Sequence record: PQ569687.1
Source: Klebsiella phage vB_Kpn_K54_rec1
DNA: 64,000 nucleotides
Reading direction: 5' to 3' (one strand)
The notes under the pieces were generated by a model that made no database searches, was not told the origin of the DNA, and was given only the letters and a program-made list of their open reading frames with translations. A program made the translations under genes and the position numbers. Within the stretch, counting starts at the first letter, position 1, and the number at the start of each line of letters is the position of its first letter. Positions 44,441 to 46,295 of the stretch are shown here, one piece after another.

Positions 44441-44841
44441 TTAACCCCCAAGCTTTCATTATAGATATCAACAAAATCGTTATCCAGCCCAAACTTTTTA
44501 CCTGCTTCAGATTTGTTATATGCCTCTTGTTTTTCATCGAGGCGAGACCTAAGCAGTTCATTCTTAGCTTTCTCTTCTGCAAGCTGACGACTTAGTTCAT
44601 CCGAAAAGTCTTGCTGCCCATTTTTAAAATCTTGGTTTGCATCTTTGTTGTTTCTCATTTGCAGATCCCATTTGTTATCCGTATCATTAACTCCACGGCT
44701 ATAGGCCTGCTGTATTTGGTAATCATACCACCCCTTAACTTCAAAAGCGCCCCACAGGAGCGCCAGAGAAAGGACAGCAATGATAACCAGTTTGGTATGT
44801 CCCTTGATAAAGGTCAAAACCATACTGATAAAATCCATCAT
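44437..44841 (-). CDS. i-spanin (inner-membrane anchored, coiled coil)
   Basis: N-terminal TM KLVIIAVLSLALLWGAF followed by a charged coiled-coil periplasmic domain. Confidence 0.55.
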   Translation of the reverse strand: MMDFISMVLTFIKGHTKLVIIAVLSLALLWGAFEVKGWYDYQIQQAYSRGVNDTDNKWDLQMRNNKDANQDFKNGQQDFSDELSRQLAEEKAKNELLRSRLDEKQEAYNKSEAGKKFGLDNDFVDIYNESLGVK

Positions 44842-46295
44842 GAGAGATCCCCATCACAATCTAATAATTCAACAATGGTCACTTTATTTCGAGGCGCTTT
44901 ATCTTCTCGGTTTACAGATACTCTACCATCACCCTCGTATTCAAGGGCAAGTGGGTCTTCCACGTCAACTTTAAAGAGGCAAGCTCCAGGTTCTATCGCT
45001 CCTGCGTGCCAACTACCCTGAACCCCATTCTTGCATAAGAGCTTGTACCTCTCTTGTGCAGCATCAAGATCAAAATAAATCCTGATCTTATCTAGCATCT
45101 CTGGATTGTCGATGCTATTGCTGTTAAGACCGAATACGTGTTTTTCGGTATGCGCCTGCATCATGTAAAAATGCACAGCACTAGATACAGCCCAGAATTC
45201 CTTGAAATACAGGCGATCGGTGTTTTTACGCAGGCGTTGGAAAACATTGAAGATATCTTTAGCTTCGAGATTAAAACGCCGTTGGCCTTTACGCTTGTCG
45301 GTGATAGTGGCAATCGTGCTGATAGCAATATCACCTGCATTATCCAGTTTATCAAATAATCCCTCAAATGAAAACGGCTCTTTTGTATCGAAGAGTTCTT
45401 CAACGTTTGTCCCGTACATACCGCTAAGATGCTTTTTGGCATCTTCCCAGCTTTCCATTTTGAGACTTGCGACGGCAACACCCAACTTCATTATTTCTCG
45501 ACGGGAGATTGTATACCCACGGGCCTCGTACTTTGACGCTCGGAGCATACTGATGATCGGGTAGTCTGTCGCTGGATTAAGAACCAACACTTTCTGTGCA
45601 GCATGTTTAAGGAAACGACTGTCAAACACCCATGTTTCATCACTAAATGAGAAGGCACCCATGTTGATGGTGTAGTCAAACTTATCAAAGATCTGCCCAG
45701 CGTTCTCAAATACCGAGAATGCAATGCATTGCATCACCGGATTAGAACCATCTGAAAACATAATGCTTTTGTCTGTCATGCCGATATTACGAACATATGA
45801 GACTTTCTTCTTTCTACTTTCGAGCAGTTTTTCAATACCATCCCAAGTCGATTCAGAGATATCAGACAGATCAAAAGGGCAGTCACTGGCAAACTTATCT
45901 TCCATCTCCAAGATCTCTTGCTTAGACACTTTCTGAGAAAGAACCTTGAATCTTGGCGCGCGGGATTCCCATACCTCTTTCCCATTGTCTAAAATGAAGA
46001 AATCACGATAAACACGTTTCTCTTCATTGTATCCCATCGTTTTAGGTGACAGGTCATGTTCACCTTTTCGTAGGTCTATATCCATCATGTAAGTAATGAA
46101 GATCTCCAAGTCATCCCATGAACGGAAGTACAGGTCGAGATCATTAACTTCCCGGTTGGTAAAGAGAGCCGTGATAGCGCCACCTGCGATTATAACATCG
46201 AGGCTACGAAGGATATGGTAAATATCCTCAGAGAAAAAACTTTTTAGTAAACGGTATTCTCGAAGATGCTCATTCTTCTCGTAAGTGTGGATCAT
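44838..46295 (-). CDS. polymerase-beta-superfamily nucleotidyltransferase, function unknown
   Basis: Start trimmed to MIHTYEKN (RBS aaggagacc). Motif IIAGGAITALFTNREVNDLDLYF matches the hG[GS]-x9-13-DhDh NTase signature. No TM segment. Confidence 0.55.
   Translation of the reverse strand: MIHTYEKNEHLREYRLLKSFFSEDIYHILRSLDVIIAGGAITALFTNREVNDLDLYFRSWDDLEIFITYMMDIDLRKGEHDLSPKTMGYNEEKRVYRDFFILDNGKEVWESRAPRFKVLSQKVSKQEILEMEDKFASDCPFDLSDISESTWDGIEKLLESRKKKVSYVRNIGMTDKSIMFSDGSNPVMQCIAFSVFENAGQIFDKFDYTINMGAFSFSDETWVFDSRFLKHAAQKVLVLNPATDYPIISMLRASKYEARGYTISRREIMKLGVAVASLKMESWEDAKKHLSGMYGTNVEELFDTKEPFSFEGLFDKLDNAGDIAISTIATITDKRKGQRRFNLEAKDIFNVFQRLRKNTDRLYFKEFWAVSSAVHFYMMQAHTEKHVFGLNSNSIDNPEMLDKIRIYFDLDAAQERYKLLCKNGVQGSWHAGAIEPGACLFKVDVEDPLALEYEGDGRVSVNREDKAPRNKVTIVELLDCDGDLS

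Follow-up and report, generated by a model that had tools for sequence, protein, structure and literature searches.

Gene organisation at the locus

The window analysed here is a stretch of 64,000 nucleotides from Klebsiella phage vB_Kpn_K54_rec1 (PQ569687.1). Between the tRNA island and the lysis and terminase genes, its minus strand carried an open reading frame (ORF) that we call the gad2-like gene (Table 1), with the ATG at position 46295 and the stop codon at 44840–44838. The preliminary description had given this ORF the same limits, a ribosome-binding site of its own, a terminator upstream and an orientation shared with the spanin and terminase genes, and all of these were confirmed; the product is 485 aa plus the stop codon, instead of the 486 aa announced there. 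The maximal ORF opens at a TTG at position 46370, but this codon falls within the terminator hairpin and all the homologs in the alignment begin with M-[IL]-H-T, so that ATG 46295 was retained as the start.

The upstream hairpin (GCCCCGC-TCTT-GCGGGGC followed by a T-run) possesses seven G-C pairs, with a dG of -18.2 kcal/mol and a z-score of -4.1; none of 200 shuffled sequences folded equally well. The gene had been placed next to the tRNA island and insulated from it. The terminator is indeed present, but an endonuclease-VII/HNH-type ORF (46906-46445) lies between the last tRNA gene and this terminator. On the other side, the i-spanin, o-spanin, TerL (44060-42537) and portal genes all run in the same direction as the gad2-like gene. 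The ATGA overlap with the i-spanin gene, found as an identical 4-nt overlap in PVP-SE1 and TH18, together with the second terminator after the o-spanin gene, delimits a unit composed of the gad2-like gene and the two spanin genes. Late expression, as put forward in the preliminary description, is an assumption. No sigma-70-like promoter was found between the upstream terminator and the ATG, the counts of such sites in the region being not above those in shuffled sequences, and a literature search for Vequintavirinae transcriptomes gave nothing usable. The translational coupling to the spanins behind a strong terminator suggests that the gad2-like gene is expressed in the middle or late phase rather than immediately early, a timing which is unusual, yet possible, for a counter-defence gene.

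Table 1. Features of the gad2-like gene and its surroundings (window coordinates)
Feature	Position	Strand	Remarks
Intrinsic-terminator-like hairpin and T-run	46336..46363	-	Lies between the Endo VII-like ORF and the gad2-like gene
Ribosome-binding site AAGGAG	46302..46307	-	6 nt before the gad2-like ATG; direct sequence reading
gad2-like CDS	44838..46295	-	Gad2-family nucleotidyltransferase, 485 aa plus stop; ORF reading and homology to Gad2
NTase motif A IIAGGAITALFTNREVNDLDLYF, residues 35-57	46125..46193	-	GG helix-turn and DxD metal-binding pair D52/D54; aligns to PcnB G67G68...D80-F-D82
Clade-specific, mostly helical insertion, about residues 60-168	45792..46118	-	Alignment; model secondary structure; skipped by BLASTP to Gad2
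Degenerate motif B FDKFDYTINMG, residues 203-213	45657..45689	-	hhalign against PcnB/Cca; equivalent to class-II RRDFTIN, two arginines lost
Neck helix block, residues 240-261, N-x2-T-x2-P...R252-x2-K255-Y256...G-Y	45513..45578	-	hhalign; equivalent to PcnB NPETRYREDPVRMLRAVRF, without the E-D of motif D
C-terminal alpha/beta domain, residues 341-485	44841..45275	-	Weak ADP-ribosyltransferase-like fold, without conserved catalytic triad
i-spanin gene	44437..44841	-	PHROG 4297 Rz-like spanin, 1.3e-51; start overlaps gad2-like stop (ATGA)
o-spanin gene	44150..44440	-	PHROG 1267 Rz-like spanin, 4.4e-24
Terminator-like hairpin	44117..44144	-	After o-spanin, ahead of TerL; ends the three-gene unit

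The gad2-like gene is accessory within the Vequintavirinae. A homology search found no such gene in rV5, although this phage possesses a tRNA cluster; the equivalent slot is occupied by gp069, which belongs to a PHROG of unknown function. The slot could conceivably be a site where anti-defence genes are swapped. The coupling to the spanins, the shared terminators and the conservation of this arrangement in PVP-SE1 and TH18 could point to a lysis or structural component. We regard such a role as extremely unlikely, considering that rV5 lyses its host without the gene, that homologs in other phage lineages sit among DNA-metabolism genes with no lysis gene nearby, and that the protein has an enzyme fold with an invariant active site.

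A degenerate class-II nucleotidyltransferase core

The nucleotidyltransferase (NTase) signature hGG-x12-DLDL reported in the preliminary description is present as IIAGGAITALFTNREVNDLDLYF, where G38 and G39 are followed by 12 residues and by D52-L-D54. These two glycines and two aspartates are conserved in 196 of 197 diverse relatives, which argues against a chance match. The insertion that follows motif A was modelled with a pLDDT of 57-92 across residues ~60-168. Beyond it, D207 is kept in 197/197 relatives and F203 in 196/197; T243, P246, K255 and Y256 in the neck are invariant, and R252 is found in all but one. The almost universal retention of the DxD pair, of a third aspartate and of the neck residues suggests that the members of the family are constrained as active enzymes and, as far as conservation can tell, that catalysis would be needed for their function.

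The core corresponds to the head-and-neck fold of class-II NTases (CCA-adding enzymes and poly(A) polymerases) in a degenerate form. Similarity in sequence to PcnB and to the CCA-, A- and CC-adding enzymes (PDB 3aql, 3h37, 3wfo, 4wby, 1miv, 1ou5) appeared only in profile-to-profile comparison (E 7e-5), and the protein stays below the Pfam threshold for PolyA_pol (PF01743). In motif A, GGxVRD...DxD in class II, the GG and DxD elements are kept and VRD is replaced by ITA/ITS. Motif B, RRD, provides ribose and triphosphate contacts in class II; what remains of it is the aspartate with the x-T-I-N behind it (KFDYTIN versus RRDFTIN), both arginines being gone in the hhalign alignment with PcnB. The absence of GGxVRD/RRD blocks had been noticed at the outset. 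Motif D, EDxxR, which serves in base templating, aligns with a segment reading Y-P-(gap)-I-I-S, without E-D. The body and tail RNA-binding domains are absent, and the C-terminus is formed instead by an alpha/beta domain resembling ADP-ribosyltransferases (ART). Among other candidate folds, TENT5/FAM46 (PDB 6jyj), non-canonical poly(A) polymerases of eukaryotes, showed 11% identity with no link at the sequence level. The CD-NTase, cGAS and OAS second-messenger synthases were set aside, neither fold nor profile comparison giving a cGAS-like match, and the minimal NTases (MNT/HEPN, MenT/AbiEii toxins, ANT/Lnu resistance enzymes) were the closest match by neither approach. The preliminary description had not been able to place the protein by eye in the MNT or OAS/cGAS families.

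A class-II fold encoded at the edge of a 22-gene tRNA island brings to mind repair or tailing of tRNA 3' ends, in the manner of CCA-adding enzymes, on the phage tRNAs or on tRNAs damaged by host anticodon or acceptor nucleases. One homolog, in a jumbo phage, has HD and RNA ligase genes in its vicinity, and an OLD-family relative of GajA has been reported to cut tRNAs. This role, one of those initially put forward, is nevertheless highly improbable. The CCA is already encoded in 21 of the 22 tRNA genes, the protein lacks motif D (EDxxR), responsible for templating C and A, the RR pair of motif B and the tRNA-binding body and tail domains, and a tRNA gene was present within 10 kb at only 8 of 60 loci outside the Vequintavirinae, so that an association with tRNA genes was rejected. 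In addition, rV5 has the tRNA cluster without the gad2-like gene, and authentic Gad2 is encoded in the tRNA-free context of SPbeta.

The C-terminal domain was compared with the ART superfamily (Tpt1/KptA, Arr, TreTu, PARP catalytic domains, diphtheria and pertussis toxins, RES toxins and DarT) and with the uncharacterised BC2332 (PDB 2aua). The resemblance to the ART split-beta-sheet fold has scores in the twilight zone. None of the ART catalytic residues (H-Y-E, R-S-E, or R-H-R-R of Tpt1) is conserved in the clade alignment, in which F9, L15, R16 and A73 are the only invariant residues of the domain among 19 members. At a strand position usually occupied by Glu, the Klebsiella phage protein has Lys, and its ExE motif, LEYEG, was rejected as catalytic because it is not conserved in the clade. 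If it is related to ART at all, the domain probably serves for binding and not for ADP-ribosyl transfer, and it is likely to be the specificity module of the protein.

Kinship to the Gad2 family

By homology over its NTase core, the Klebsiella phage protein is a member of the Gad2 family. The experimentally validated reference is ORF_159 of SPbetaL7. A tblastn search retrieved the SPbetaL7 CDS annotated Gad2 (E 5e-22), and BLASTP aligned the two proteins over two collinear blocks with 38-44% identity (E 3e-29 and 2e-12). In the reciprocal search, Gad2 matched a single protein in the window, and bridging members connect the two sequences. The homology is confined to residues 1-59 and about 170-320. 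Collinear C-terminal motifs first seen by eye were dropped after two profile-profile tests: the hhalign probability for the C-terminal profiles was 1.6%, and a global score of 2.0 fell inside the shuffled distribution (mean 2.6, maximum 8.6).

The family is very large, with 4,425 cluster representatives (50% identity) at E<=1e-3 and variable C-termini. Due to this size, different clades may differ in their targets. A precomputed match to PF26128 exists for all 55 homologs examined. Scans of the protein against NCBIfam, the defence and anti-defence HMMs of PADLOC and a Pfam set that did not contain PF26128 gave no meaningful match, Pfam returning none even at E 10 and NCBIfam only the BSAP-5i immunity family, at a noise level of 16 bits for a cut-off of 150. 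With the same Pfam set, nine homologs gave sub-threshold noise only, the relative P0049 being marginal at 0.13. Searches of PDB sequences with the single protein and with the family profile returned nothing relevant and no Gad2-family structure.

The relationship was already catalogued by the discoverers of Gad2, and the gene is therefore not new. Their homolog list includes a 485-aa orthologue from Klebsiella virus KpS8, MIHTYEKNEHLREY..., as well as proteins of BIS47, GAP31, PVP-SE1 and GAP32 (Suppl. Table 10, Yirmiya et al., bioRxiv 10.1101/2023.05.01.538930; Nature 2024), the "experimentally verified" field being blank for KpS8. [quoted passage not shown] The identity of the "NTase of unknown role" is thereby explained by membership of the Gad2 anti-Gabija family. 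The interpretation given in the preliminary description was partly supported.

Proposed role and comparison with Gad2

We propose that the protein of this Klebsiella Mydovirus is probably an accessory counter-defence enzyme, which would counter Gabija (GajA/GajB) or a close relative of it among the host systems acting at DNA ends or nicks; for this clade, the anti-Gabija action would be expected by analogy with Gad2. Gabija occurs commonly in the host species, and is a signature defence of the major K. pneumoniae clones ST15 and ST23. In the mechanism that we favour, the blocking would be catalytic. To our knowledge, all the solved enzymes with a class-II head-and-neck architecture perform template-independent nucleotide transfer to a polynucleotide 3'-OH. 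For this reason, we prefer a model in which nucleotides from (d)NTPs would be transferred to the 3'-OH of a DNA end, a nick or an RNA. In this way, the ends or nicks targeted by Gabija would become masked or altered, and the clade-specific ART-like domain would recognise the substrate or target. The loss of RR in motif B and of EDxxR in motif D predicts a nucleotide and sugar selectivity different from that of the CCA-adding enzymes and poly(A) polymerases. In the analysis of neighbouring families, DNA ligase was the only recurrent signal (7 of 44 loci, about 5 lineages), a weak hint which may only reflect the clustering of DNA-metabolism genes.

A more specific version of this model, which we offer as a speculation and consider unlikely, is an end-modifier in two modules, where a stripped-down class-II NTase, deprived of the residues that select ribose and base and joined to a Tpt1/ART-like domain that binds ends or NAD/ADP-ribose, would tail or cap phage DNA ends or nicks in such a way that Gabija cannot engage them. 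If true, Gad2 would thereby receive its first mechanism, and counter-defence a new form in which DNA ends are masked enzymatically instead of the defence protein being bound.

Protein adenylyltransferases are found among the enzymes with an NTase fold, and the missing EDxxR and RR, which in CCA-adding enzymes and poly(A) polymerases template the base and bind the primer, together with the replaced body and tail, are compatible with an acceptor other than a polynucleotide. The protein could then inactivate GajA, GajB or another host protein by AMPylation or UMPylation, a reading that we find quite improbable. It is also conceivable, and very unlikely, that a small nucleotide molecule is its product or substrate, for example a derivative keeping the GajA nuclease off, or a mimic or sponge substrate of a second messenger; the preliminary description had named second-messenger synthesis or mimicry among its candidates. 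GajA has been reported to be inhibited by bound NTPs and dNTPs, the C-terminal domain resembles ART folds that bind NAD or ADP-ribose, and genes for NAD+ salvage are present in the phage.

The practical value of these observations lies in annotation, as the gene is labelled "hypothetical" by GenBank/RefSeq in about 30 Mydovirus genomes of Klebsiella, Proteus and Raoultella phages, which are employed in phage therapy or envisaged for it. Given the link between Gabija and ST15/ST23, the presence or absence of the gad2-like gene may help to predict host range. The hypotheses on the mechanism of Gad2 are also narrowed by the degenerate class-II head-and-neck, the active site almost invariant across at least 197 diverse relatives, the loss of the nucleotide-selecting motifs and the ART-like domain in the clade.

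The comparison with SPbetaL7 Gad2 bears on a last reading, in which the family and the enzymatic core are the same but the clade would neutralise a different defence system, or alter a host factor in the course of takeover. The Klebsiella phage protein is longer (485 aa versus 400 aa), contains a helical insertion of ~95 aa after motif A that is missing from SPbetaL7 Gad2, and ends with 145 residues showing no detectable similarity to those of Gad2. The gad2-like gene adjoins spanin and terminase genes, whereas SPbetaL7 gad2 occupies the gad1/gad2 swap locus of SPbeta, free of tRNA genes. The validated members are two closely related proteins of Firmicute phages, assayed against one Gabija and originating from neither Gram-negative hosts nor Vequintavirinae, in a very large family with variable C-termini. 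A change of target is therefore possible but somewhat unlikely, since Gabija is frequent in the host species and nothing points to another specific defence system. Both genes are accessory and phage-encoded, the catalytic and nucleotide-binding core is shared at the level of identity given above, and the invariant GG, DxD, D207, T243, P246, R252, K255 and Y256 are identical in the two proteins.

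Membership of the Gad2 family

The 44838–46295 gene product gave no match in Pfam (a set without PF26128), NCBIfam, PADLOC or the PDB sequences; in PHROGs it matched one family of unknown function and, weakly, a "nucleotidyltransferase". Phages also encode Gad2, the second known Gabija anti-defence protein, which has about 400 amino acids and a predicted nucleotidyltransferase (NTase) domain; homology to it was tested directly. In a tblastn search of phage genomes, the window protein matched positions 109563–110216 of Bacillus phage SPbetaL7 (E 5e-22), a CDS annotated "Gad2". 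This match falls within the 109,505–110,753 deletion which rendered SPbetaL7 Gabija-sensitive (Yirmiya et al., bioRxiv 10.1101/2023.05.01.538930). Two collinear BLASTP blocks were observed, window residues 188–317 against Gad2 87–218 (38% identity, E 3e-29) and residues 1–59 against Gad2 1–52 (44% identity, E 2e-12). In the reciprocal search the gad2-like ORF was the sole match in the window. Gad2 matched 55/55 family members, one of them (P0051) being 44% identical to it over the full length, and all 55 homologs carried a precomputed PF26128 match in a large protein collection. The protein is almost certainly a Gad2-family NTase. The preliminary description had called it an NTase of unknown role that could not be placed by eye in the GlnE/GlnD, MNT or OAS/cGAS families: the NTase call was correct, and the Gad2 family was overlooked.

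This membership is already public, since the discoverers' homolog table has an entry for phage KpS8; the gene is thus a catalogued Gad2 homolog. In that table, "experimentally verified" is marked "Yes" for the Brevibacillus laterosporus homolog alone and is blank for KpS8. Klebsiella phage vB_Kpl_K54lambda1.1.1 matches the region at 100% identity; KpS8 (Mydovirus, Vequintavirinae, about 143 kb), in which the gene is gp079, matches it at 99.7%. Essentially all records label it "hypothetical protein", and a single UniRef copy is named "Nucleotidyltransferase".

The gene, its signals and its neighbours

Features of the window considered in the analysis
Feature	Position	Strand	Remarks
gad2-like CDS	44838–46295	−	ATG at 46295, stop codon 44840–44838; 485 aa
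RBS	6 nt 5' of the ATG	−	AAGGAG
G+C-rich hairpin and T-run	46363–46336	−	upstream of the gad2-like gene; −18.2 kcal/mol
Second terminator-like hairpin	44144–44117	−	between o-spanin and TerL
Endonuclease-VII/HNH-type ORF	46906–46445	−	upstream; Pfam Endonuclease_7 8.8e-14, PHROG endonuclease VII 6e-23
Second endonuclease-VII/HNH-type ORF	48249–48749	−	in the tRNA island; CxxC...HH by eye, no Pfam match at 1e-3
Third tRNA-Met (CAT anticodon)	54847–54919	−	ends ...ACGA
NAD+ salvage set	56170–57903, 57911–58711	−	
NAD+ salvage set	3724–4812, 6811–7518	+	
T4 Rnl1-type RNA ligase	62286–63263	+	with the next, about 16 kb from the gad2-like gene
Calcineurin-like phosphoesterase	61185–61778	+	

The ORF was present as first described, with its own RBS, an upstream terminator and a position between the tRNA island and the lysis/terminase genes; its length had to be amended, the 486 residues counted initially including the stop codon. 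Because the alternative first codon of a longer reading, TTG 46370, lies inside the upstream hairpin and the homologs uniformly begin with M-[IL]-H-T, the ATG was retained as the start. The folding of this hairpin was equalled by 0/200 shuffles (z = −4.1), and no promoter was detected in the 40 nt between this strong terminator and the RBS. On the other side, the stop codon shares bases with the i-spanin start (ATGA), followed by o-spanin, a hairpin, TerL and portal. This coupling suggests a middle or late expression, atypical for counter-defence genes. It is also the sole argument for a role in lysis, which appears barely credible.

The 22-gene tRNA island lies upstream, beyond the first endonuclease-VII/HNH-type ORF, whose maximal reading runs into tRNA-Met 46921–46996. 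Both ORFs of this type, embedded in the island, are probably homing endonucleases. The third tRNA-Met, the only one of the 22 without an encoded 3'-CCA, could reflect a misplaced ARAGORN boundary or be a pseudo-tRNA; the KpS8 annotation has 17 tRNAs versus 22 ARAGORN predictions in the corresponding window stretch.

The catalytic core and the added domains

The hGG-x12-DxD motif was found as the preliminary description gave it. The family profile was aligned to the E. coli PcnB and Cca sequences (E 7e-5, probability 63%, 186 columns), whereas all 20 column-shuffled control profiles gave E >= 0.09.

Residue equivalences between the family and PcnB
Motif	Family	PcnB	Remarks
A	AGGAITS...ND-x-D	GGGVRD...KD-F-D	D52/D54 = D80/D82
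B	K-F-D207-Y-T-I-N-M-G	R-R-D162-F-T-I-N-S	
Neck	N-P-x-T-x-Y-P-(gap)-I-I-S-M-L-R252-x-x-K255-Y256	N-P-E-T-R-Y-R-E-D-P-V-R-M-L-R-A-V-R-F	

In class-II CCA-adding enzymes, the motif B arginines and the E-D...R of motif D read ribose and base. Compared with PcnB, the window protein retains the metal-binding site and the nucleotide-pocket scaffold but has neither the two motif B arginines nor the E-D...R. From these equivalences, it is a degenerate class-II head and neck. The initial statement that the blocks of CCA-adding/poly(A) enzymes were missing was thus only half correct. Among 197 sequences (the window protein, Gad2 and 195 representatives), G39, D52, D54 and D207 were kept together in 196, as was R252, and T243, P246, K255 and Y256 were present in all. 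Such conservation is typical of active enzymes.

The AF2 model, a confident one (pLDDT 82, pTM 0.83), contains a mostly helical insertion of ~95 residues (about residues 60–168), which is clade-specific and missing from Gad2. The C-terminal domain would resemble ART at the fold level only, no ART catalytic triad being conserved in its clade alignment. Its homology to the Gad2 C-terminus was undetected (probability 1.6%, global score inside the shuffled range). In a Foldseek comparison with BFVD, the full-length model matched numerous proteins of giant viruses (Pithovirus, Klosneuvirus, Hyperionvirus, Pandoravirus, entomopoxviruses) with E-values of 1e-5 to 1e-3 and low TM-scores (about 0.25); fusions to ankyrin, F-box, BTB or VWFA domains are frequent among these proteins. 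This may reflect a distant kinship of the NTase core between phage and NCLDV proteins, or merely generic NTase similarity.

Distribution and proposed role

An exhaustive profile search yielded 4,425 cluster representatives at E <= 1e-3 (697 at E <= 1e-30), a number well above the 170 homologs of the original description (Yirmiya et al., bioRxiv 10.1101/2023.05.01.538930), with a common core of about 250 residues and variable C-termini. In the Vequintavirinae the gene occupies a single slot, tRNA island/gad2-like gene/i-spanin/o-spanin/TerL, as seen in Mydovirus, Seunavirus (PVP-SE1) and TH18. No homolog was found across the genome of the type phage rV5, whose slot between tRNA cluster and i-spanin holds an unrelated 89-aa ORF, gp069 (11660–11929, minus strand, PHROG 8729, unknown function). 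The gene is thus accessory, as expected of a counter-defence gene. Since Gad2 came to light through its exchange with Gad1 at a single locus, gp069 is by analogy a candidate alternative counter-defence gene. In PVP-SE1 the gene is annotated as ORFs 80 and 79 (3501–4055 and 4159–4917, ~100-nt gap), the tblastn match is likewise divided in two in both SSE121 and GEC_vB_MG, and fragments of 42–51 aa occur in Salmonella phages 19 and 41; in part of Seunavirus the gene may be frameshifted or decaying, or there may be a sequencing or intron-like interruption.

Outside the Vequintavirinae, tRNA adjacency is lost, a tRNA lying within 10 kb in 8/60 loci. The tRNA 3'-end repair suggested initially is very improbable: this adjacency is lineage-specific, 21 of the 22 tRNA genes already encode CCA, the protein has neither motif D nor body and tail domains, and rV5 has tRNAs without the gene. 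In a census of 146 neighbours at 44 dereplicated loci, the sole recurrent family was ATP-dependent DNA ligase (7/44 loci: L022, L024, L037, L039, L042, L043 and L044, from IMG/VR), of differing types, about 278–451 aa long and at most two genes away, in about five independent lineages including the SPbeta-like group. This recurrence is a weak hint. The usual setting of the family seems to be DNA-metabolism modules, the spanin-side position of the Vequintavirinae being an exception. DNA Pol III alpha-like proteins were seen within five genes in six additional loci.

SPbetaL7 needs Gad2 for Gabija resistance, one homolog suffices to abolish Gabija defence, and SPbetaL7 Gad2 is toxic to cells (Yirmiya et al., bioRxiv 10.1101/2023.05.01.538930). 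A Pseudomonas phage NTase annotated as Gad2-family is cytotoxic under high induction. The mechanism of Gad2 is described in the literature as "yet to be elucidated". In the current model, Gabija acts where DNA ends have no RecBCD activity and prevents end-joining as well as circularisation of the genome. In K. pneumoniae, it is a signature module of the ST15 and ST23 lineages, so the presumed target is present in the host species. We propose that, in Klebsiella, the gad2-like protein acts catalytically against Gabija or a related system. That the clade blocks Gabija specifically has an even chance. The main rival, which we consider a lesser possibility, is that the clade has been retargeted to another defence system, since its likely specificity domain differs from that of Gad2.

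For an anti-Gabija enzyme, the chemistry would be an untemplated nucleotidyl transfer onto a polynucleotide 3'-OH (a DNA end or nick, or RNA), and the ART/Tpt1-like domain could recognize an end, a nucleotide or the target. Such tailing is preferred because, to our knowledge, all solved enzymes of this head-and-neck architecture are 3'-end polymerases; it is put forward tentatively. Nucleotidylylation of a protein is unlikely, and a small-molecule product more so. With the selectivity motifs lost, an altered or relaxed NTP/dNTP choice is predicted. RNA/DNA end-repair functions, such as the RNA ligase and phosphoesterase of the window, could cooperate with an end-modifying NTase; just beyond, KpS8 76341–78418 encodes a Sir2-like protein and an ATP-dependent DNA ligase. 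The remaining interest is modest and mechanistic: a class-II CCA/PAP-like core with an ART-like appendage, in a very large, active-site-invariant family.

The NAD+ salvage set comprises a Nampt-like phosphoribosyltransferase (NAPRTase family, 1.5e-27), a ribose-phosphate pyrophosphokinase, a NadR-type NMN adenylyltransferase/kinase (CTP_transf_like and AAA_28) and a PnuC NMN transporter. Given this set, the ART-like domain and a 2026 Erwinia study reporting that gad2 and NARP2 co-occur perfectly in phages of that genus, the gad2-like protein may have a link to NAD. The set resembles the NAD+-reconstitution counter-defence pathway NARP2.
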